Shown here: positions 23,253 through 47,562 of the stretch, in pieces
Numbering within the stretch: position 1 is the stretch's first letter
Layout of the letters: each line of letters opens with the position of its first letter
Virus record (IMG/VR): IMGVR_UViG_3300010885_039212
Location: 1-64,000 of that record
Length of the DNA stretch: 64,000 bases
Reading direction: 5' to 3' (one strand)
Source: a virus
The notes under the pieces: model-generated
What the model was told of the DNA's origin: nothing
The model's input: the letters and a program-made list of their open reading frames with translations, nothing else
Database searches by the model: none
Program-made: the position numbers and the translations under genes

Positions 23253-23698
23253 AACAAAAGTGGATTGATGCATTTATGGATACAGCTGAACGATTTGCTC
23301 AACTGTCCAGTGCAATTCGTTTGAAGGTAGGTGCGGTAGTTGTTAAAGACAATCGCATCATCTCAATCGGTTACAATGGCATGCCAGCTGGTTGGACAAA
23401 CGAATGTGAGTATCATGTAAGTGAATATTGTGATGCCACAAAATCTTGGTATCCTACTAGTGAAACAAAAACGAAAGACGAGGTTATTCATGCTGAAGCA
23501 AATGCTATACTTAAACTTGCACGTGATGGTGAATCAGGTAATGGTGCCAGTTTATTCTGTACTCATGCTCCATGTATTGATTGCGCTAAATTGATCTATG
23601 GTGCTGGTATTTCAAGTTTTTACTATCGTAACGCATATCGCAATACTGATGGTATTGATTTTTTAAACAAGTGTAGTATAAATGTTCTCGAAAGATAA
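23249..23698 (+). CDS. cd: dCMP deaminase
   Basis: VGAVVV, GYNG, HAEANA, PCIDC. Confidence 0.92.
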   Translation: MKQKWIDAFMDTAERFAQLSSAIRLKVGAVVVKDNRIISIGYNGMPAGWTNECEYHVSEYCDATKSWYPTSETKTKDEVIHAEANAILKLARDGESGNGASLFCTHAPCIDCAKLIYGAGISSFYYRNAYRNTDGIDFLNKCSINVLER

Positions 23699-24218
23699 AA
23701 TTATTTCCTATCAATTGGTAGGTGAAGAGTTTAATAATGTTCAAAAAGAATTAGAGCAATTTTACAACCTTGATATACCATATGCCAATCCATTTGATAC
23801 AAAAGATCCAGAGTCAAGAATACCGTATCCAAGATTAGATGTAAGTTATGCTACCTTTAATTACAGTGTTATTAGAATGCATAACTTAACTAAATTGGGT
23901 GATGCAATAATAATGCATTCTCCGAATAAAAATTGTATGATTGGTGAGAACTGGGCAACTGATATGAAGATAGGTAGTATTTCTGATGCTCACACTCATA
24001 TTAATTATTCAGAAGATACATTTTTCTGTGGAGTTTATTACTACGATGTAGATCAATCAGATGTTAATATACAATTTTTAATTGACGATATATGGGTTGA
24101 TTTTGATATGAGACCTGGAAAGTTAATGTATTGGCCAACTAATTATTTTCATCGTATACCAATGAAAACTTCTAATGTAACAAGAAGATCGTTTTCTTTT
24201 AATTTATATAAAAGATAA
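23682..24218 (+). CDS. putative 2OG-Fe(II) oxygenase
   Basis: HTH, GVYY, FH, RRSFSFN. Confidence 0.6.
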   Translation: MFSKDKIISYQLVGEEFNNVQKELEQFYNLDIPYANPFDTKDPESRIPYPRLDVSYATFNYSVIRMHNLTKLGDAIIMHSPNKNCMIGENWATDMKIGSISDAHTHINYSEDTFFCGVYYYDVDQSDVNIQFLIDDIWVDFDMRPGKLMYWPTNYFHRIPMKTSNVTRRSFSFNLYKR

Positions 24219-24238
24219 ATTATGCTAAATAAGAGATA

Positions 24239-24300
24239 ACCCTACTGCAAAGAGGGTTATTATTTTTTTACTTTACTTTAATTCAAAAAGAGCGTATAAT
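24239..24300 (+). promoter_or_regulatory. sigma70 promoter of the tRNA array with upstream palindrome
   Basis: ACCCTAC-N5-AGAGGGT; TTTACT(24272)-17-TATAAT(24295). Confidence 0.85.
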
Positions 24301-24307
24301 TTCAATT

Positions 24308-24421
24308 ATGAAATCAGTAATCTGTCTGTCGTTAGCAAAACATCTTCCACTAAACTGTGGCTGGTCATTTGCACGCCCACAGTATGAGATTACAGCCGAT
24401 AGTGGGGGTTTTGGAAAGTAA
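24308..24421 (+). CDS. putative leaderless attenuator leader peptide containing all 20 amino acids
   Basis: MKSVICLSLAKHLPLNCGWSFARPQYEITADSGGFGK*; ATG follows the -10 after 7 nt; last codons overlap the antiterminator arm. Confidence 0.7.
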   Translation: MKSVICLSLAKHLPLNCGWSFARPQYEITADSGGFGK

Positions 24422-24452
24422 ATTAAATTTACGTTTATTTCCCAAAGCCCTC
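24404..24452 (+). promoter_or_regulatory. antiterminator hairpin
   Basis: 24404-24422 pairs with 24434-24452 at 18/19 positions (incl. G-U) and shares AAAGCCCTC with the terminator. Confidence 0.7.
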
Positions 24453-24480
24453 TGAGATGAAAGTCCAGAGGGTTTTTTGT
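24444..24480 (+). terminator. intrinsic terminator (attenuator) upstream of the tRNA array
   Basis: AAAGCCCTCTG...CAGAGGGTTTTTT. Confidence 0.85.
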
Positions 24481-24501
24481 TTGTTATCGTACAAACAAAA
24501 T

Positions 24502-24513
24502 TGTTCTTTAAAA
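24502..24513 (+). promoter_or_regulatory. boxA-like Nus antitermination site
   Basis: TGTTCTTTAAAA vs rrn boxA TGCTCTTTAACA, just before the first tRNA. Confidence 0.55.
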
Positions 24514-24530
24514 ATTTGCGTACCAAATGT

Positions 24531-24604
24531 TGGGGTATGGTGAAGTGGTATCACAACGGATTTTGATTCCGTCGTTCTTGGTTCGATTCCAAGTACCCCT
24601 GCCA
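24531..24604 (+). tRNA. tRNA-Gln(TTG)
   Basis: Cloverleaf, loop TT-TTG-AT, CCA. Confidence 0.9.
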
Positions 24605-24608
24605 AATT

Positions 24609-24684
24609 GCGTCGGTAGCTCAGCTGGTAGAGCAGTAGACTTTTAATCTATTGGTCGTGGGTTCGAATCCCGCCCGACGCACCA
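24609..24684 (+). tRNA. tRNA-Lys(TTT)
   Basis: Loop CT-TTT-AA, CCA. Confidence 0.95.
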
Positions 24685-24733
24685 TATTAAAATATATTAG
24701 AGATAAGCAGGAACTTATAGTATGTTTTAATAT

Positions 24734-24809
24734 GGTGACTGTAGATCAATGGTAGATCCCTGGATTGTGATTCCAGTCGTTGGGAGTTCGAGTCTCCTCA
24801 GTCACCCCA
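24734..24809 (+). tRNA. tRNA-His(GTG)
   Basis: G-1, loop TT-GTG-AT, C73, CCA. Confidence 0.93.
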
Positions 24810-24814
24810 AGTAT

Positions 24815-24890
24815 GCCAAGATAGCTCAGTTGGTAGAGCACCTGTTTGAAGCACAGGGTGTGGGCAGTTCGATTCTGTCTCTTGGTACCA
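24815..24890 (+). tRNA. tRNA-Phe(GAA)
   Basis: Loop TT-GAA-GC, CCA. Confidence 0.9.
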
Positions 24891-24891
24891 T

Positions 24892-24965
24892 TCCCTTGTA
24901 GCTCAATGGTAGAGCAAAGTGCTGATAACGCTGAGACACAAGTTCGATTCTTGTCGAGGGAACCA
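24892..24965 (+). tRNA. tRNA-Ile(GAT)
   Basis: Loop CT-GAT-AA, CCA. Confidence 0.88.
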
Positions 24966-24970
24966 GTTAT

Positions 24971-25045
24971 GCCTTGTTAGCTCAGTGGTAGAGCGTCTCG
25001 TTTACACCGAGAGGGTCGGCAGTTCGAAACTGTCACAAGGTACCA
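24971..25045 (+). tRNA. tRNA-Val(TAC)
   Basis: Loop TT-TAC-AC, CCA. Confidence 0.93.
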
Positions 25046-25047
25046 AT

Positions 25048-25122
25048 ACCCGATTAGTGAAATGAATATCACACCTTGCTACGAACGAGGAGTTGGGAGT
25101 TTGATTCTCTCATTGGGTGCCA
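25048..25122 (+). tRNA. tRNA-Arg(ACG)
   Basis: Loop CT-ACG-AA, variant T-loop TTTGATT, CCA. Confidence 0.85.
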
Positions 25123-25127
25123 ATAAT

Positions 25128-25217
25128 GGAAGTATGGTCGAGTCTGGTTTATGGCACCTGTCTTGAAAACAGGCAACTCGAAAGGGTTCGTGGGTTCAAA
25201 TCCTACTACTTCCGCCA
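25128..25217 (+). tRNA. tRNA-Ser(TGA)
   Basis: Long variable arm, loop CT-TGA-AA, G73 CCA. Confidence 0.93.
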
Positions 25218-25233
25218 ATTTAAGGAGATGTAT

Positions 25234-25812
25234 ATGCCAAGTGTATTTTTAGTAAGCGATACTCACTTTGGTCATGCTGGTGTATGCAGATTCACTACGC
25301 AGACTGGAGAGAAGTTAAGACCATGGGATAATGCCGATGAAATGGATGAAGCCATGGTTGAAATGTGGAATGAAACAGTGAAGCCAACTGACAAGGTTTA
25401 CCATTTAGGTGACGTTGTCATTAACCGCAAAGCCATGGGAATCATGCGCAGGTTAAATGGTGACAAAGTTTTAATTCGTGGTAACCATGATATCTTTAGA
25501 GATGATGAGTATCGTGAACACTTTCGTGAGTTACGTGCTTATCATGTGATGAATGGTATGATCTTAAGTCATATTCCTATTCATCCTGAATCTTTAGGTA
25601 GATTTGGTGTTAACATCCATGGTCATTTACACTCAGGTAGAGTGATGATGAATGATCCATTTGGACATCGTGAACCAATGATCGATCCTAGATATCATTG
25701 TGTTTGTGTTGAACAAACTGATTTTCGTCCTATCTTATTTGAACGTGTAATTGAACGCATCAAAGAAGAAGGTGGCGAAGTTGGATTTCGTAATGGTAAT
25801 GGACCAACTTAG
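25234..25812 (+). CDS. calcineurin-like metallophosphoesterase
   Basis: SDTHFGH, HLGD, GNHD, SH, HGHLH; AAGGAG RBS (ORF-track start lies inside tRNAs). Confidence 0.88.
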   Translation: MPSVFLVSDTHFGHAGVCRFTTQTGEKLRPWDNADEMDEAMVEMWNETVKPTDKVYHLGDVVINRKAMGIMRRLNGDKVLIRGNHDIFRDDEYREHFRELRAYHVMNGMILSHIPIHPESLGRFGVNIHGHLHSGRVMMNDPFGHREPMIDPRYHCVCVEQTDFRPILFERVIERIKEEGGEVGFRNGNGPT

Positions 25813-25900
25813 GAAGACGGGCAGGACGGTAATGCAGCAGATTGCTAATCTGTAGATTGTATAATATGATCATAGGGTTCGACTCCCTAGTCTTCCGCCA
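25812..25900 (+). tRNA. tRNA-Ser(GCT)
   Basis: Loop TT-GCT-AA, long variable arm, G73 CCA. Confidence 0.9.
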
Positions 25901-25965
25901 ATTTAAGGAGAAAAATATGTCAGTAGAAGAGTATTGGAAATGGATAAGAGATAATGCACAGTAAC

Positions 25966-26049
25966 ACGAGAATGGTGGAATGGTATACACAGGAGACTTA
26001 AAATCTCCCGACGCAAGTCATGAGGGTTCGAGTCCCTCTTCTCGTACCA
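25966..26049 (+). tRNA. tRNA-Leu(TAA)
   Basis: Loop CT-TAA-AA, variable arm, CCA. Confidence 0.93.
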
Positions 26050-26052
26050 ATT

Positions 26053-26129
26053 GTCTCGGTAGCTCAGTAGGATAGAGCAACAACCTTCTAAGTTGTGGGT
26101 CAGGAGTTCGAATCTCTTCCGAGACGCCA
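26053..26129 (+). tRNA. tRNA-Arg(TCT)
   Basis: Loop CT-TCT-AA, CCA. Confidence 0.95.
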
Positions 26130-26133
26130 GTTT

Positions 26134-26208
26134 GGGCTGATAGCTTAATGGTAAAGCAGTGAACTCATAATTCATTGAGTGTAGGTTCAATTCCTACTCA
26201 GCCCACCA
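26134..26208 (+). tRNA. tRNA with CAT anticodon (probably Ile2/lysidine, possibly Met)
   Basis: Loop CT-CAT-AA; initiator and another CAT tRNA are present elsewhere. Confidence 0.85.
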
Positions 26209-26213
26209 TATAT

Positions 26214-26288
26214 GCACGTGTGACTGAATGGTAAGGTAGCGGTTTGCAAGTCCGATGTTCGTAGGTTCGATTCCTACCACGTGTTCCA
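26214..26288 (+). tRNA. tRNA-Cys(GCA)
   Basis: Loop TT-GCA-AG, U73, weak anticodon stem, CCA. Confidence 0.8.
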
Positions 26289-26290
26289 GA

Positions 26291-26437
26291 TTATTTTTTG
26301 TTGTAAAGATCGAAAAGAGTTTTAACTTTTTCTTCAAGAACAGCAATTCTATTATCTGCTTTTGCAAGAATAATTACTAAAGTGATGAAACCAACAAAAA
26401 CTGGCCACAACTTCATGATGTTATCGATTAGATCCAT
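26291..26437 (-). CDS. small single-TM protein (48 aa; not in ORF track)
   Basis: MDLIDNIMKLWPVFVGFITLVIILAKADNRIAVLEEKVKTLFDLYNKK; GGAGG RBS and ATAAATA upstream on the minus strand. Confidence 0.7.
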   Translation of the reverse strand: MDLIDNIMKLWPVFVGFITLVIILAKADNRIAVLEEKVKTLFDLYNKK

Positions 26438-26467
26438 GCTACCTCCATTTTTGCTTATTTATCAATA

Positions 26468-26628
26468 ACCATGTTGCAAGAATGGTTATTAAATTAGTGC
26501 TTTACAAATAATAAAAAGTGTAGTATAATAAATCTATGATGAGAAGAAAAGAGAGTGGTTTGAAAGACCCTCTGAAATGAAAGGTTATTAAATTATCTCT
26601 TTACTTTTAATCATAAATGCGGTATAAT
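26468..26628 (+). promoter_or_regulatory. two tandem sigma70 promoters internal to the tRNA array
   Basis: TTTACA(26501)-17-TATAAT(26524) and TTTACT(26600)-17-TATAAT(26623), each with a degenerate ACC-N13-GGT box 14 nt upstream. Confidence 0.8.
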
Positions 26629-26735
26629 TCTATTCTGGAATCAAAAAAGGAAAACAAAATGGAATGTTTGAAATGTAAAAAATGGCACTTTAAAATGAAT
26701 CCTTGTAATCCTGGAAAACAAAGGTAAGGATAGTT

Positions 26736-26810
26736 GCTCGGCTCGTCTATCGGTTAGGACACTGCCCTTTCACGGCAGGAAGACCAGTTCGATTCTGGTG
26801 CCGAGTACCA
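26736..26810 (+). tRNA. tRNA-Glu(TTC)
   Basis: Loop CT-TTC-AC, CCA. Confidence 0.93.
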
Positions 26811-27032
26811 AATTTAATTGCATTGGGTTACCAATACCAGTAGGTGATCTAGTTTGTCTACAACTGACGGAGTTGTAACTGCTAGATTACACGAAACCTC
26901 GAGATAATATCAGAAGGACGCTGGAGCAAGTTGGTCTGTAATGTGGTTGACAAACAAATCCGTGGACGACACGGTAGGGCAGGTTCAAAACTGTTATTTT
27001 TGTCAAACATCCCAGTGTGATTAAATTTGGTA
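26806..27032 (+). ncRNA. unknown multi-stem structured RNA
   Basis: 22-bp closing stem with G-U pairs and several internal helices. Confidence 0.6.
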
Positions 27033-27180
27033 TTAGTTTAGTGCTATCAAGGTATCGTGATCTGATCAATCACTATTCGGGTCCAACTGGCGAGGGACGG
27101 ATCCTAATATAACTGCTTAGTCGCTATGGGATGTTAGCTACAGACCCCTAAATCGAGCAGATAGCACTAAACTAATACCA
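27028..27180 (+). ncRNA. unknown structured RNA ending in ACCA
   Basis: Perfect 21-bp inverted repeat 27028-27048/27160-27180. Confidence 0.6.
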
Positions 27181-27181
27181 T

Positions 27182-27267
27182 GGAGAATGAGAAGCATTGG
27201 TGACTTCAGCAGACTGTAAATCTGTCGCCTTATGGCATATGGGGTTCGAATCCCTGATTCTCCACCA
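27182..27267 (+). tRNA. tRNA-Tyr(GTA)
   Basis: Loop CT-GTA-AA, variable arm, CCA. Confidence 0.9.
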
Positions 27268-27274
27268 AGTATTT

Positions 27275-27349
27275 GGTCTCGAAGTGTTCATGGACGCACA
27301 CAACACTGTCACTGTTGAAGAAGGGGATCGTTACCCCTCGAGACCGCCA
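27275..27349 (+). tRNA. tRNA-Asp(GTC)
   Basis: Loop CT-GTC-AC, atypical T-loop ATCGTTA, G73 CCA. Confidence 0.85.
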
Positions 27350-27356
27350 TGTTTAT

Positions 27357-27484
27357 GTCCTGGTAATCCACGCCAAGTTCGCAACTTGGGTTCTACGATG
27401 AGTTCGCAACTCATGGCAGTAGAGAGGTAAAAACCCTGTTTATAGGGTCTCCAGTGAGTAGGTGAAACTCCTATAAGGACGCCA
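27357..27484 (+). ncRNA. tRNA-like RNA with twin anticodon-like arms
   Basis: GTCCT/AGGAC-G-CCA acceptor, T-arm GTAGG-TGAAACT-CCTAT, two 5-bp stems with the identical loop TTCGCAA. Confidence 0.65.
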
Positions 27485-27680
27485 TTTTTGTTGGAATGAA
27501 TTCAAAGTCTTGTGACTTTTTTAGTAGTTCGTCAGGAACGAATTTGACAGATACATATTTATCAGGAATGAAATGTTTTGATGTAGTATAAGTCGATTGT
27601 GTGTATTTAATGTTGTCTATTTTATACAACATTAAATATGAATCTTCAGGTGGGATATGTGACATAAGTATATTTATTAT

Positions 27681-27755
27681 TCCAGAGTAGCACAGCGGTA
27701 GTGCAGTTGACTGTTAATCAATTGGTCGTAGGTTCGATCCCTGCCTCTGGAGCCA
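27681..27755 (+). tRNA. tRNA-Asn(GTT)
   Basis: Loop CT-GTT-AA, CCA. Confidence 0.95.
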
Positions 27756-27760
27756 GTTAT

Positions 27761-27835
27761 CGCAGAGTGGAGAAGTAGTATCTCATCAGGTTCATACCCT
27801 GAAGATCGGTGGTGCGATTCCACCCTCTGCAACCA
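27761..27835 (+). tRNA. initiator tRNA-fMet(CAT)
   Basis: C1:A72 mismatch, loop TT-CAT-AC, CCA. Confidence 0.88.
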
Positions 27836-27840
27836 AACAT

Positions 27841-27923
27841 GCCCCGATGGTGGAATGGTAGACACGCTGGTCTTAGAAGCCAGTGCCTAGTGCGTGAGAG
27901 TTCGAGTCTCTCTTGGGGCACCA
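27841..27923 (+). tRNA. tRNA-Leu(TAG)
   Basis: Loop CT-TAG-AA, variable arm, CCA. Confidence 0.93.
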
Positions 27924-27930
27924 GAATTTC

Positions 27931-28005
27931 GGTGATGTAGCACAGTGGTAGTGCAACTGCTTCATACGCAGTTGGTCGGTGGTTCAAATCCACCCATCAC
28001 CACCA
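27931..28005 (+). tRNA. tRNA-Met(CAT), probably elongator
   Basis: Loop TT-CAT-AC, G1-C72, CCA. Confidence 0.88.
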
Positions 28006-28036
28006 GTCATAAGTAGATAACATTGGAGATTTTTAT

Positions 28037-28255
28037 ATGGATATGGATCAAGCAGCAGTCTTTTTGGCAGGAAGTATTTTAATGTCAGTGGGTGTGCTTG
28101 TTATTGTTGGTGCGGTAGTTGCTATCAATAACATCATACACAGATATTGGAAAAATCTTGGATGGAATTTACTTCCATTTGATTATAGACCAGCAGTGTT
28201 TCTTGATCCAAGTGAGATGAAGAAAGAAGAACCAGTGTTAGAGAAGAAGAAATAA
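28037..28255 (+). CDS. small membrane protein
   Basis: GGAG RBS, one TM. Confidence 0.6.
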   Translation: MDMDQAAVFLAGSILMSVGVLVIVGAVVAINNIIHRYWKNLGWNLLPFDYRPAVFLDPSEMKKEEPVLEKKK

Positions 28256-28257
28256 TA

Positions 28258-28334
<77 letters not shown>

Positions 28335-28347
28335 ATTTAGGTAATGC

Positions 28348-28821
28348 ATGTATACAATAGAACAACATAAAATCGATGATGAAATAATTTCTTCACTAGA
28401 AAGTATTTTAGATTGTTGCGTTGAGTTCAATGAGAAATTGATTCCACTGAACAGTACCTACACCAAAAATGGAATACAAACAGAGAATCTTTGTGGTTAT
28501 AAAAATGTTGATGAAGTAATAACAAAAATCTTAATCAACATAAACCATACAGAGTTGACTTGTAAACATCTGCATATGATATCTTATAACGAAGGTGGTA
28601 TGCAAGAGGTTCACGATCACGCAAAGACTGAAACACATTCTTTCGTGTTGTATCTATCGACTTGTGAAGATGGTGGTGAAACTGTCTTTATAGATGAAAC
28701 TGGTAATGAAGTTTCAGTTCCTCCAAAGAGGGGTAGTTTATTGTTATTTGATTCAAGAATACTGCACTACAGTAAACCCACAAAAAGTAAAAAGAAGGTA
28801 GTTGTTGCAGCATTAATTTAA
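28348..28821 (+). CDS. 2OG-Fe(II) oxygenase
   Basis: HDH, SFVLYL, DGGETVF, PKRGSLLLFDSRILH. Confidence 0.75.
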   Translation: MYTIEQHKIDDEIISSLESILDCCVEFNEKLIPLNSTYTKNGIQTENLCGYKNVDEVITKILININHTELTCKHLHMISYNEGGMQEVHDHAKTETHSFVLYLSTCEDGGETVFIDETGNEVSVPPKRGSLLLFDSRILHYSKPTKSKKKVVVAALI

Positions 28822-28825
28822 ATAT

Positions 28826-28900
28826 GGGTTGTTAGTTTAGTTGGGAAAACACTTGCCTTGCACGCAGGAGTGGGGAGTTCGAATCTCCCACGATCCACCA
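28826..28900 (+). tRNA. tRNA-Ala(TGC)
   Basis: G3-U70, loop CT-TGC-AC, CCA. Confidence 0.93.
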
Positions 28901-28904
28901 ATTT

Positions 28905-28978
28905 GCCCTTTTAGTATAATGGTATTACACCTGTTTTGTAATCAGGTTACGGCAGTTCGATTCTGTCATGGGGCACCA
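28905..28978 (+). tRNA. tRNA-Thr(TGT)
   Basis: Loop TT-TGT-AA, CCA. Confidence 0.9.
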
Positions 28979-28982
28979 ATAT

Positions 28983-29056
28983 ATCTCTCTAGTGTAATGG
29001 CAGCACGTCGGTCTCCAAAACCGCCAGTCGGGGTTCGATTCCCTGGAGGGATGCCA
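28983..29056 (+). tRNA. tRNA-Trp(CCA)
   Basis: Loop CT-CCA-AA, G73 CCA. Confidence 0.9.
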
Positions 29057-29060
29057 TATT

Positions 29061-29134
29061 GCGGGATTAGTTTAATGGTCAAACGAAACCTTGCCAAGGT
29101 TTAGTCACCAGTTCGATTCTGGTATCCCGCTCCA
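29061..29134 (+). tRNA. tRNA-Gly(GCC)
   Basis: Loop TT-GCC-AA, U73 CCA. Confidence 0.93.
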
Positions 29135-29145
29135 ATAAAGTTCAT

Positions 29146-29835
29146 ATGAAACACATAATCACACTTTTATCGTTCGTAGCATTAAACAGTTTTTCTAAAC
29201 CAGTTGTAACTGAATCTTATGTTCTTTATGATGCAGATTCTCATACAACAATAACTGGTAAAGACATGAACGAAGTTAAACCAGTGGCTAGTTTAACTAA
29301 ATTAATGACTGCAATGATCGCAATTGACAGAGGAATTGGTGATAGAGAATCATTTGAGAAACTGCTTATTCGTTCTGATAATGGTGTGGCAGAAAGTCTC
29401 GCAAAGAAATATCCAGGTGGTAAACTAGCATTCATTAAAGCAATGAATACTAAAGCAGAATCACTTGGATTACATTACACTTCATATCATGATCCAAGTG
29501 GTCTCAGTGTTTTCAATCGTAGTACAGCAAAAGAATATGTCTCCGTAGTATTGGAAGCAAACAAGTATCCAATGATTCGAGAGATATCATCGATGCCACT
29601 CAAAAAAATAAAGAATAAAAAACGATCATACGTAATCTACAATACTAATAGTGCTCTACTAAAGGAGTATGAAAATATTGTGATAAGTAAAACAGGGTTT
29701 ACCAGTCATGCTGGTAGATGTCTTGCTTTGTATGTGGAAGAGAAACCTAAGAAGCACATTATTGTGATACTCGGTGAACCAACTCCGCAGAAGAGAGCAG
29801 AAATAGCGAGAGAGTTAATCAATATGACGAAGTAA
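29146..29835 (+). CDS. D-Ala-D-Ala carboxy/endopeptidase (peptidase S11)
   Basis: ASLTKLMT (SxxK), SDN, KTG; signal peptide. Confidence 0.88.
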   Translation: MKHIITLLSFVALNSFSKPVVTESYVLYDADSHTTITGKDMNEVKPVASLTKLMTAMIAIDRGIGDRESFEKLLIRSDNGVAESLAKKYPGGKLAFIKAMNTKAESLGLHYTSYHDPSGLSVFNRSTAKEYVSVVLEANKYPMIREISSMPLKKIKNKKRSYVIYNTNSALLKEYENIVISKTGFTSHAGRCLALYVEEKPKKHIIVILGEPTPQKRAEIARELINMTK

Positions 29836-29845
29836 GGAGATAATC

Positions 29846-30328
29846 ATGCGTCCTATCGACATCAATGAAGTAAAAACATTCATTGAAGCACAAAGTCCAG
29901 AAACAAAAATTTACATTGGGGCTGATTCCGAAAGATTTAATATAGGTAATGATTGGTACGCAGATTATACTTTGGCAATCGTTGTTCACATTAATGGTAA
30001 CAGTGGTTGTAAAATTTTTGGTGAAGTTCAGAGAGAACGTGATTATGATAGAAAGCAGAACAGACCACGTATGCGGTTAATGACTGAAGTCTACAAGATT
30101 GCAGATCTATATTTGAAACTACAAGATGTTCTTGAAGATCGAGATGTAGAAGTTCACCTAGATATTAATCCAAACGAGATGCATGGATCATCTTGTGTGA
30201 TTAATGAAGCAACAGGATATATAAGAGGTATGTGTAATGTGGTGCCATTGGTTAAACCAAATGCATTTGCGGCATCATACTGTGCAGATCGAATGAAAGA
30301 TATTTTGTCAAATAGAATGGTAGCATAA
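29846..30328 (+). CDS. RNase H-like protein (DUF458/YkuK family)
   Basis: IYIGADS, EVHLDIN, AASYCAD. Confidence 0.75.
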   Translation: MRPIDINEVKTFIEAQSPETKIYIGADSERFNIGNDWYADYTLAIVVHINGNSGCKIFGEVQRERDYDRKQNRPRMRLMTEVYKIADLYLKLQDVLEDRDVEVHLDINPNEMHGSSCVINEATGYIRGMCNVVPLVKPNAFAASYCADRMKDILSNRMVA

Positions 30329-30329
30329 T

Positions 30330-30403
30330 GCGGGATTCGTAAAATGGTATTACCTTAGCCTTCCAAGCTAAAGTCGGGAGTTCGATTCTCCCATCCCGCT
30401 CCA
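30330..30403 (+). tRNA. tRNA-Gly(TCC)
   Basis: Loop CT-TCC-AA, U73 CCA. Confidence 0.93.
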
Positions 30404-30417
30404 ATCAAAGGATTATT

Positions 30418-30636
30418 ATGAACGAAGAAGTTACAATAGATGAACCAAAACCAATGTCATTCTCTGAGAAATGGCATGCTGAGAAACTTCTGAAGCGATC
30501 TAAAAAGAAAGCCAAGAAAGCACTGATCGACAAAGGGTATGATCCAACATCAGCCACATCCATGGTAAAGAAAGCACTTAAGAAAATTGTCAATGACAAT
30601 AAACCAGTGAAGAGAGCAGCAGGACGTGGCGGATAA
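30418..30636 (+). CDS. basic hypothetical protein
   Basis: 72 aa ending RAAGRGG. Confidence 0.55.
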   Translation: MNEEVTIDEPKPMSFSEKWHAEKLLKRSKKKAKKALIDKGYDPTSATSMVKKALKKIVNDNKPVKRAAGRGG

Positions 30637-30646
30637 AACCTAATGT

Positions 30647-30934
30647 ATGGAGATGATGATGGACGAATTAACAAAAGCCAAGCACAGCAAGAGAATGCAT
30701 CAAAAAGAAGTCGTGTCAAAGCGAAAAGCAAAGATAGCGAAAGCCCACGGGATACCAGTGGAAAACGCACACGAACTACTAGATCACAGCCCAGTAAGTT
30801 GCTCAAGTCCACTGTGCGTAATGTGTCGAAATCCAAGAAAGACATTCAAGGAATTGACGATTCAGGAACAAAGAAAGTTTCAAAACCCAGACGAAACAAG
30901 AGATCGTCGCAGTAATGGATTAGTAACAGAATGA
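30647..30934 (+). CDS. basic protein with CxxxxCxxC motif
   Basis: CSSPLCVMCRNPRK; start probably at a downstream Met after GGAG. Confidence 0.55.
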   Translation: MEMMMDELTKAKHSKRMHQKEVVSKRKAKIAKAHGIPVENAHELLDHSPVSCSSPLCVMCRNPRKTFKELTIQEQRKFQNPDETRDRRSNGLVTE

Positions 30935-31191
30935 TGCCATTTTTTGTAAGCGTAGACAAAGCCAGAGAACGATCTGATATATGCAGATCTTGCGATAAGT
31001 TCAAAGTAGGATTTTGTACAGAGTGTAATTGTCTTTTAAAATTTAAAGTTGTATTTGCAAATGTCGATTGTCCACTAAACAAATGGACAACTGAAGATCC
31101 AACTGATATTTGTATTCACAATGTAACTGAAGATCTATCCAGTATCGAGGAAAGCACTACATCATGGGATAATTGGAAAGCAATCGAATGA
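30931..31191 (+). CDS. Cys-rich small protein
   Basis: ICRSC...CTECNC...CPLNKW. Confidence 0.6.
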   Translation: MMPFFVSVDKARERSDICRSCDKFKVGFCTECNCLLKFKVVFANVDCPLNKWTTEDPTDICIHNVTEDLSSIEESTTSWDNWKAIE

Positions 31192-46074: not shown

Positions 46075-46728
46075 ATGAAGACATTTATACACCATGAATT
46101 CGATAAACTCCAACGTGAAACCTCTCCCGATGGTAAAAGAGTTTACAAAACTCCGTCGGGTCGAGCCTACCCTAGCGTCACAACAGTTACAGGACTCCAC
46201 TCAGCAAAATCAATCGCACAGTGGAGAGCAAGAGTCGGAGAAGCAGAAGCCAACAGAATATCAGGTCGCGCAAGTGCACGTGGCACAAGAATCCACAGTC
46301 TCTGCGAATCATTCCTCCGCAATGAAAGATGTGAGCCTGATATCTTCGATCGAGAATTATTTCAGGGAATTTCACCCCACCTTGAAGAAATAGATAATAT
46401 ACATGCGCTTGAAGATCCTCTGTACTCAGATCATCTTGAAGTTGCGGGAACTGTTGATTGTATTGCTGAGTTTAGAGGTAAGTTATCTGTAATAGATTTT
46501 AAAACTTCAAGTAAAGTAAAAACTCGTGATGATATTCACAATTACTTTATGCAAACATCAGCATATGCAGTTGCCTTTGAAGAACGAACTGGGATTCCTG
46601 TTGGTAGACTTGTAGTTATTATGGGAGTTGATAATGAGGATCCATTGATATTTGTCGAGAAGAGAGATACTTGGATTGATGGTTTCTGCAAATTGAGAGA
46701 AGAATATAAAAATAAATTTGCTTTATAA
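46075..46728 (+). CDS. PD-(D/E)XK exonuclease
   Basis: YPSVTT, RGTRIH, AGTVD, IDFKTS, Q..AY. Confidence 0.85.
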   Translation: MKTFIHHEFDKLQRETSPDGKRVYKTPSGRAYPSVTTVTGLHSAKSIAQWRARVGEAEANRISGRASARGTRIHSLCESFLRNERCEPDIFDRELFQGISPHLEEIDNIHALEDPLYSDHLEVAGTVDCIAEFRGKLSVIDFKTSSKVKTRDDIHNYFMQTSAYAVAFEERTGIPVGRLVVIMGVDNEDPLIFVEKRDTWIDGFCKLREEYKNKFAL

Positions 46729-46752
46729 CTAAATATAAGGTATAATGAAGGT

Positions 46753-47035
46753 ATTGCTGTATGAAGTGATGTAAAACGTGTTCTGGACGGGAGTTCGATT
46801 CTCCCCACCTCCACCAAAACGGCACTACACCCCTCTTAACAATGGGCAACCTTGTAGTGCGTTTTTGATGGGGGTGACTAGGTTTCGACAGGGCAATTAG
46901 TAACTGCGTGGACAGCACATCAGAGTAGATGTTAAAACTAAACAAAGTAAACGCAAACGACTCACAGTTCGCATTGGCAGCCTAAACGCTGACTAGGGTT
47001 TCGGTAGGTTTCCTCGTAACAGAATAACCTACCAT
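46753..47035 (+). ncRNA. ssrA: circularly permuted (two-piece) tmRNA
   Basis: T-arm+CACCTCCACCA (to 46816) precedes GGGGGTG 5' end (46870); G3-U70; tag ANDSQFALAA* 46953-46985; TATAAT at 46741. Confidence 0.92.
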
Positions 47036-47058
47036 TTTTTAAATAAAGGAATATAATC

Positions 47059-47562
47059 TTGTTGGGTATTATATTAGGTAATGGACCAAGTAAACAGTTT
47101 TACGATAGAAGCGGAGACTGTGTAATTGGTTGTAATATCCCAAGCAAGGAATTTAGTGTTGACGCAACTGTAATATGTGATGTGGAGATTGTTTATCTTT
47201 TAGCGACATCTCCAGAATTAGTTCAATGTCCAGTTATTGTCAGCACTAAAGCATGGGAAAAAATGAAAGAGTTACGTATCGATCATTATTTTGATATTCG
47301 ATACGTGTTTCAACCTAAAGACTGGTATAATACTGCACATTATGCTGCAGAGTTTTTGCTCGAGCATGGAGACTTCAATACAATACATATATGGGGATGC
47401 GATTCTATATTCAGTGATACTACAGAATCTTCTACTGATAAGTTTGTAAAAAAAGAAAACACTAAAGACCAAAAATTTATTAAAAATTGGCGTAGAGTGT
47501 GGGATGAGATTTTTAACCGATACCCAAATATCGACTTTAACACGATGAGGATAGAAAAATGA
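47059..47562 (+). CDS. hypothetical protein with GNGPS motif
   Basis: ILGNGPS, IGCN, IWGCD. Confidence 0.55.
   Translation: MLGIILGNGPSKQFYDRSGDCVIGCNIPSKEFSVDATVICDVEIVYLLATSPELVQCPVIVSTKAWEKMKELRIDHYFDIRYVFQPKDWYNTAHYAAEFLLEHGDFNTIHIWGCDSIFSDTTESSTDKFVKKENTKDQKFIKNWRRVWDEIFNRYPNIDFNTMRIEK

Follow-up and report, generated by a model that had tools for sequence, protein, structure and literature searches.

A Candidate Ribosome-Mediated Attenuator Sampling Nearly All Amino Acids Ahead of a Phage tRNA Array

The window analyzed here covers the initial 64 kb of a phage contig 95.7 kb long (IMG/VR record IMGVR_UViG_3300010885_039212; G+C 36%), and the element of interest is a leader unit placed directly ahead of its tRNA array, in which a promoter, a 37-codon open reading frame (ORF) containing all 20 amino acids and an intrinsic terminator follow one another on the + strand. 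About 70 loci of this unit were recovered, from uncultivated freshwater phages, and across them the anatomy is conserved, the ORF is under coding selection, the terminator and an alternative helix both covary, and 19 to 20 amino-acid types are kept up in the encoded peptide. Judged by this comparative evidence, the explanation toward which we lean is a trp/his-type attenuator, mediated by the ribosome, which samples nearly all amino acids and gates the phage tRNA array.

Anatomy of the leader unit and coding selection on its ORF

The leader unit is insulated against transcription from upstream by the intrinsic terminator of the preceding operon (24237..24269, +), a TAACCCT/AGGGTTA stem with a T run that is found as the same hairpin in the same place in the relative L001. 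It is followed by a sigma-70-type promoter, TTTACT-17-TATAAT (24272..24300, +; TATAAT at 24295-24300), which matches at 10/12 positions, and the arrangement of TTTACT or TTGACT, 17 nt and TATAAT is kept ahead of most family members. The leader ORF, 37 codons and a stop, occupies 24308..24421 (+), and since its ATG lies only 7 nt past the -10 box the mRNA should be leaderless. Within the ORF, folding at full length predicts a small hairpin over codons 14-18 (CCAC...GTGG, 24347..24360, +). The 5' arm (24404..24422, +) of an alternative, antiterminator-like helix consists of codons 33-37 and the stop; the last 9 nt of the matching 3' arm (24434..24452, +) double as the A-tract and the opening 5 nt of the terminator stem, and 18/19 positions of the two arms are paired, 3 of them as G-U. 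The intrinsic terminator itself (24444..24478, +; fold −18.4 kcal/mol) is made up of the A-tract, the stem CCCTCTG/CAGAGGG (24448-24454/24466-24472) and T6 (24473-24478), and was missed by a simple scanner because its loop measures 11 nt.

Every feature named in the initial annotation, which had been made from the letters of the window, is really in the sequence: the promoter with an ATG close to the start, the 37-residue translation, the occurrence of all 20 amino acids by codon 31 with 31/37 sense codons distinct (4 Leu, 4 Gly and 3 Ser codons among them), the 18/19 helix overlapping the 5' arm of the terminator, two internal promoters at 26501 and 26600, and a complete tRNA array. This array (24531..30403, +) holds 26 tRNA genes as called by ARAGORN and Rfam, the first of which is tRNA-Gln(UUG), starting 52 nt after the T-tract of the leader terminator. 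ARAGORN finds 25 of them; one more, at 26214-26288, is missed by ARAGORN and found by Rfam (52 bits), and its anticodon loop reads as Cys-GCA. With this gene added, all 20 specificities are present in the array.

Relatives of the unit were gathered along several routes. The first was found via the upstream 2OG-Fe(II) oxygenase, 53% identical, and shares promoter spacing, ORF length, stop codon and terminator with the window, while the two ORFs differ by 7 synonymous and 10 non-synonymous codons. Scans of viral contigs with an exact 18-mer at the ORF end and with a degenerate pattern of the C-terminal peptide gave 29 and 41 loci, respectively, and a scan of metagenome contigs with the N-terminal motif KHLPL[NLS][SC]GW only gave 40, the three sets overlapping. 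A profile search of a protein database added 50 more unnamed peptides, called as genes. The family peptides have 37-45 residues and the consensus MKSLNISRxxNKHLPLNSGWTCSRPQF, 0-8 variable residues, AIEYDSGGFGK. At every locus with enough downstream DNA a tRNA array lies behind the leader, beginning 50-540 nt past the terminator, and its first gene is tRNA-Gln(UUG) in all lineages but one (L048/L049); the expectation of the initial annotation that the ORF would be conserved upstream of the tRNA arrays of relatives is thus borne out. The DNA occurs in freshwater and lake metagenomes, and four RNA-labelled runs (one of them probably DNA) yielded only fragments resembling tRNAs and, at low depth, a few contigs of relatives. 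Among cultured phages (INPHARED), no close relative of the region was found, the matches being to tRNAs only, and tblastn with the leader peptide gave no match even at E<=1; a single-protein scan of IMG/VR with the upstream oxygenase and an exact 29-mer also gave nothing.

The comparative evidence indicates that the short leader ORF is translated. We conclude that it is under coding selection because conserved residues vary synonymously, length changes stay in frame throughout the family, and some variants carry a Shine-Dalgarno sequence. The conserved K, H, L, P, L and G columns use alternative codons (CCA 20/CCG 13; six Leu codons; GGC/GGA/GGT), and two loci without the leaderless promoter (L009 and L023) have AAGGAA 8 nt ahead of the ATG instead. 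The coding signature and the Shine-Dalgarno variants speak against a degenerate tRNA or an untranslated structured non-coding RNA. The overall ratio of non-synonymous to synonymous polymorphism (pN/pS) of the ORF is 0.67, its positions being either strongly conserved or freely variable. As a protein, it falls into no known family: Pfam gave no match and PHROGs nothing significant (one match at E=0.29) among the 21 members scanned, and AlphaFold on the family alignment, as weak evidence, returned a predicted local distance difference test score of 58 and no secondary structure.

The codons chosen in the leader differ from those of the phage's own genes. CAG and GAG make up about 90% of the Gln and Glu codons in the leaders vs. 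CAA and GAA at 74-79% in the genes, and in the four-codon boxes the codons ending in A or G account for 77% vs. 48%. In the six codon boxes served by U34 phage tRNAs only, the window leader has 11/13 codons ending in A or G vs. 48% in genes (Fisher P=0.01). This bias may come from RNA structure, decoding speed or a match to the phage U34 tRNAs; as the leader sequences are homologous, we take the preference for U34 tRNAs as a hint only.

Covariation and geometry of the two helices

The comparison of loci illustrates that both helices are maintained. In the terminator, 98% of the alignment cells are paired across the family and 17 cells are changed on both sides, while for the alternative helix 93.9% of cells are paired vs. 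at most 69.6% in shifted registers. The triplets GGG GGT TTT of the 5' arm have their synonymous sites unchanged in 33/33 distinct ORFs, and the sole mismatch of the helix is the third base of the next Gly codon, which varies among A, C and T. Changes on one side tend to be legible on the other: where the stop codon has gone from TAA to TAG, the partner arm has C in place of U, GGG to GAG in the 5' arm makes A-U out of a G-U pair, and L095 carries U-A to A-U and G-C to A-U swaps. In L094 and L108, TTTT has become TTT in the 5' arm together with AAAA to AAA in the 3' arm, the peptide end going from GGFGK to GGLASK with the helix kept. The initial annotation had predicted stem covariation in spite of peptide divergence, and the prediction held, down to this compensated 1-nt deletion.

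Cognate pairs of arms are more stable than non-cognate ones (permutation P<5e-5), and for each of seven divergent 5' arms, which came from the locus set picked by the N-terminal motif alone, its own 3' arm is the best of 41 partners. The geometry is equally constant. In all 41 of the 41 distinct arm pairs, the helix has 15-20 bp, includes the stop codon in its 5' arm and stops precisely 5 nt inside the terminator stem. From these sequences, the alternative helix and the terminator are mutually exclusive. Their energies are comparable (the helix at −19 to −26 kcal/mol, the terminator at −16 to −21 kcal/mol), and the full-length minimum-energy fold of the leader contains the terminator together with a truncated helix, so the outcome should depend on which structure forms first during transcription. 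The hairpin over codons 14-18 (5-7 bp, over the Leu-Pro-Leu...Ser-Gly codons) is likewise kept in 36 variants, with compensatory forms such as CCGTT/AACGG, CCATT/AATGG and CTACCAT/ATGGTAG, and could be a candidate pause hairpin for RNA polymerase.

Upkeep of amino-acid types and a proposed switch

Of the 40 distinct peptides, 29 have 20 amino-acid types and 11 have 19, which agrees with the prediction of near-complete coverage in homologous leaders. Such coverage is rare in short peptides. The simulation that the initial annotation had proposed, of how often short ORFs contain the full set, was run with random peptides of the phage's composition and with real sliding windows of its proteins, both with like results, and gives a chance for all 20 amino acids of about 2e-4 within 31 residues and about 1-2e-3 within 37; for random 40-mers, the probability of 20 types is about 0.002-0.005. 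Occurrences counted in the first 31 distinct peptides are strikingly even: His, Tyr and Asp occur exactly once in 31/31, Phe exactly twice per peptide, Glu once in 30/31 and Cys once in 27/31, and Gln is absent from none.

These single residues are kept while their positions move. In the alignment Tyr is found in 6 columns, His in 4, Gln in 9, Glu in 4 and Cys in 5; where a member has lost the Tyr of AIEYD, another has arisen a few residues upstream, and between the window and L001, Phe and Tyr are exchanged between two positions. When columns are shuffled among 16 representatives (<80% identity), 28.1 +/- 2.9 missing types are expected and 7 are observed, and by residue His, Tyr, Gln, Glu and Cys are significant (P<=0.025 each) and Val is not, all of which overstates independence because the sequences are related. 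A constraint on composition predicts that single residues move repeatedly in this way; a constraint on a folded or binding peptide does not. If each type has to stay and most are single, most non-synonymous changes are harmful, which may explain much of the conserved residue order.

With this in mind, the unit can be read as a switch, of which we infer the transcription start, the coupling of ribosome to polymerase, the direction and the response to tRNA shortage. Transcription would begin at or beside the ATG and give a leaderless mRNA, on which the ribosome would translate a test ORF of 37-45 codons in which almost every amino acid is represented once or a few times. The final five codons, together with the stop, would be the 5' arm of the 15-20 bp helix, whose 3' arm would take in the A-tract and the terminator stem's first 5 nt. 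A ribosome that is on pace at the stop codon would melt the helix, the terminator would form and the polymerase would stop about 50 nt before tRNA-Gln. With the ribosome absent or stalled upstream, the helix would form first and block the terminator, and the polymerase would pass a boxA-like element into the tRNA genes. Such a stall could arise when a charged tRNA is lacking, be it from starvation, from decay of the host tRNAs or from defences that cleave tRNAs. The reach of sensing in such a switch depends on the footprint assumed for the ribosome: the mean number of types competent for sensing is 17.2 with the ribosome edge at +12 nt from the A-site codon and 18.6 with the edge at +8 nt. As a side observation on the stop codon, in L061 (3317-3390) and L062 (3316-3389) the gene directly after tRNA-Gln is called as a tRNA whose anticodon is UUA, which would make it an ochre suppressor, or AUA; as speculation, a UAA suppressor there would read the leader's TAA, carry the ribosome into the terminator region and alter the switch.

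What lies between terminator and array bears on how far the leader can be in control. In the window and 11 relatives, the T-tract and tRNA-Gln are 49-52 nt apart and no promoter better than chance is found between them; no promoter fits this gap, and the array is therefore reached only by read-through. In 17 relatives, with gaps of 72-540 nt, a sigma-70-like promoter TTGACx-17-TAnnAT is present (9-12/12), and L023 and L050 have a weak one (8/12) in gaps of 132 and 189 nt. L003 has Arg-UCU first, 52 nt to tRNA-Arg, and no boxA-like block. Two elements are shared by both main arrangements of the gap. The first is a hairpin (24476..24499, +) with a conserved loop, (C)ATCGT, and a covarying stem that overlaps the T-tract (GGG/CCC, GGC/GCC, CCCTAC/GTAGGG, TTTGT/ACAAA), which may be boxB-like. 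The other is a boxA-like block, TGTTCTTTAAAAA (24502..24514, +), 29 nt before tRNA-Gln and present in most relatives, reading TGCTCTTTAAAAA in L072 and L073. Where a second promoter exists, the CATCGT hairpin lies upstream of it and the TGTTCTTTAAAAA block downstream. Compared with the E. coli rrn BoxA, UGCUCUUUAACA as deduced, TGTTCTTTAAAAA agrees at 10/12 positions, and two relatives agree at 11/12. At <=2 mismatches, the TGTTCTTTAAAAA 13-mer is found 12 times in the window vs. 9.6 expected, no more than chance.

Other features of the window stand beside these. Near 26501, inside the array, the promoter TTTACA-17-TATAAT (11/12) has an ATG 6 nt past its -10 box that opens a 14-codon ORF, behind which lies AAAGACCCTCTGAAATGAAAG, a near-copy of the 5' arm and loop of the leader terminator (19/21 identical to 24444-24464) without a 3' arm and without a T-tract. 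From its sequence, the 26501-26600 element resembles a duplicated leader module that has decayed into an unregulated internal promoter. Behind the 26600 promoter, a short Cys-rich ORF (MECLKCKKWHFKMNPCNPGKQR, 26660-26728) with a Shine-Dalgarno-like AAGGAAA ends 8 nt before tRNA-Glu. The array also contains a phosphoesterase gene (25117-25812; PHROG 547, E 6e-51), whose listed GTG start overlaps tRNA-Ser and whose true start is probably a downstream ATG. A further translation-rescue function of the same genome is a phage-encoded transfer-messenger RNA at 46724-47076 with the tag ANDSQFALAA. Within 23500-31000, Rfam at E<=1 found nothing but tRNAs and sub-threshold chance matches.

Weighing the attenuator against other explanations

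Several observations weigh against an attenuator that samples the amino acids, beyond the relatedness that inflates the shuffle tests. No region of the ORF is complementary to the 5' arm, so that no region 1 or anti-antiterminator is seen in the fold, and untranslated transcripts should consequently read through by default. The residue order KHLPLxSGW, R, AIEYD is more conserved than sampling needs. There are no tandem regulatory codons, most amino acids occurring once or twice; sensitivity to mild limitation should therefore be low, while single codons should still respond to severe tRNA loss. Asp always stands 2 codons before the helix and is hence masked by the ribosome when in the A site, Glu and Tyr are borderline for masking in many members, and Val is absent from 9/31 peptides, its retention not being significant. 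A second promoter follows the terminator in 17/32 relatives, where the leader could at most add to the array's own transcription and cannot be its main control, and L048 and L049 retain the leader with only a sparse tRNA set behind it.

The interpretation given in the initial annotation is partly supported. The conserved trp-like geometry and the comparative predictions that held speak for attenuation; a peptide order conserved beyond the needs of a pure sampler limits it. The description of the leader as pan-amino-acid was overstated: 19-20 types are maintained, but Asp is masked, Val is often missing and 17-19 types are competent for sensing. Control of the array by the leader agrees with the read-through-only layout of the window and 11 relatives, but not with the gap promoter of 17/32 relatives, nor with the window's own promoters at 26501 and 26600.

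The downstream promoter that starts the tRNA array in those 17/32 relatives is also the main point in favor of an independent small gene, that is, one for a micro-protein or for a small RNA of about 170 nt with a dual function, which would accompany tRNA arrays because its product targets tRNAs or anti-tRNA defences of the host, the stop-codon helix serving transcript stability, processing or translational control rather than attenuation. Its own strong promoter and efficient-looking terminator, the KHLPLxSGW...R order conserved with synonymous variation, the 50 protein-database homologues called as genes and the persistence of the unit where the array is sparse (L048, L049) point in the same direction. 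We regard such a gene as unlikely, if still a serious contender: it has no Pfam or PHROG family match and no predicted fold, its C-terminus as protein is free to become GGLASK, EGWDG, RGLRK or GGSVK while the RNA helix is kept, and it leaves unexplained the constant end of the helix 5 nt into the terminator stem, the relocation instead of loss of single residues, and the transcription of the array at the 12 loci that have no promoter in the gap. The same geometry and covariation also speak for an attenuator that reports only whether any ribosome follows the polymerase, as a gauge of general translation capacity or shut-off with incidental amino-acid diversity, and the weakness of single codons as sensors, the masking of Asp and often of Glu and Tyr, and the frequent lack of Val would all be in keeping with it. 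We consider this distinctly unlikely, as His, Tyr, Gln, Glu and Cys are retained while moving (P<=0.025 each; 7 missing types vs. 28.1 expected) and a random 37-45-mer rarely has the 19-20 types that 40/40 peptides have.

An arrest peptide like TnaC, SpeFL or SecM, in which L-P, G-W and R would stall the ribosome on a ligand or factor and so set the terminator choice, has in its favor an architecture like that of leader-ORF switches and residues L13, P14, W19 and R23, which change rarely or never while their codons vary synonymously. The spacing between the conserved Trp and the stop ranges over 18-26 residues, owing to the 0-8-residue insertions, the C-terminal residues that would have to sit at the peptidyl-transferase center are not conserved as protein, and the conservation of L-P-L/S-G is explained in part by the covarying RNA hairpin; with neither spacing nor C-terminal peptide conserved, we set the known nascent-peptide arrest leaders aside and hold a regulatory arrest peptide to be quite improbable. 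A non-stop design like arfA or brfA is set aside, as the stop codon comes before the terminator. Finally, hundreds of short ORFs occur in a 64-kb window and the all-20 property was noticed post hoc (P about 1-2e-3 per 37-mer), as would suit a chance ORF beside an ordinary terminator, but about 70 loci conserve the ORF, its frame, the place of its stop and the two helices, with a flanking protein only 53% identical in the one relative compared, and the probability of chance is negligible.

The attenuator toward which we lean can be placed among known systems. The leaders trpL, hisL, leuL and pheL are leader-peptide transcription attenuators of amino-acid operons, and the phage unit shares with them a short translated leader ORF before the regulated genes, a leader hairpin as possible pause site, a 5' arm that a ribosome standing at the stop would cover and a 3' arm in common with the intrinsic terminator. 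As read from the sequences, four defining features of trp/his attenuators are present: a translated leader, a terminator, an exclusive helix and a stop codon in the 5' arm. Their clustered regulatory codons, however, are not found, since the phage leader has nearly every amino acid once or twice and no tandem runs of one codon. It is also unlike them in being leaderless, in apparently having no region 1 that pairs with region 2, in regulating tRNAs rather than biosynthetic enzymes, and in being carried by a phage. Attenuator sensitivity is linked to the number of regulatory codons. Multivalent attenuators are known from ilvGMEDA (Ile/Val/Leu) and thr (Thr/Ile), and as in these, one leader would sense more than one amino acid; they sense two or three amino acids by many repeated codons, however, and the phage leader up to 19-20 by mostly single codons. 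That the design of the regulatory codons decides sensitivity is also the gist of a model of attenuation as outlined in its source (PMC1183508).

Regulators of other kinds share some of these traits. In Anabaena PCC 7120, the sources in outline describe a long tRNA operon that is cryptic, induced under translational stress and subject to the repressor TrcR (PMC8421152, PMC10272220), and this stress-induced operon is the nearest published functional analogue. As the phage array would be, it is a full extra tRNA set kept off until translational stress switches it on; unlike the phage array, it is controlled by a protein repressor and not by a leader ORF/terminator switch, in a cellular and not a phage-borne setting. 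For the boxA-like block, the comparison is with rrn-type boxA and Nus-factor antitermination (PMC3177189, PMC2800207), to which it is similar by sequence alone, and it sits downstream of the attenuator as a separate element. The decision between terminator and antiterminator as a report on tRNA charging would be shared with the T-box, but Rfam gave no T-box match (specifier loop plus T-box sequence), and such a riboswitch is rejected. A T-box riboswitch binds one uncharged tRNA directly, with no translation needed. Full-text literature searches found no description of a leader-peptide attenuator ahead of tRNA genes.

The reason for large phage tRNA sets and the timing of their use are debated, the ideas being that they compensate for codon usage, stand in for host tRNAs as these decay, or let the phage evade defences that cleave tRNAs (PMC10264068, PMC11555353). 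More tentatively than attenuation itself, and with somewhat less than even confidence, we suggest from these sequence comparisons a self-tuning circuit of tRNA supply, in which any decoding failure would open the complete replacement set and restored decoding would close the switch; it would be the first attenuator of tRNA genes and the first to sense near all amino acids. The leader element takes up only about 240 nt, and is therefore directly testable in reporter constructs or cell-free systems, and it could serve as a general sensor of decoding failure. If the attenuator reading is true, classical attenuation, with its single amino acids and enzyme genes, would be widened to almost the whole set of amino acids and to tRNA genes, and phage tRNA expression would be a regulated response to translational stress.

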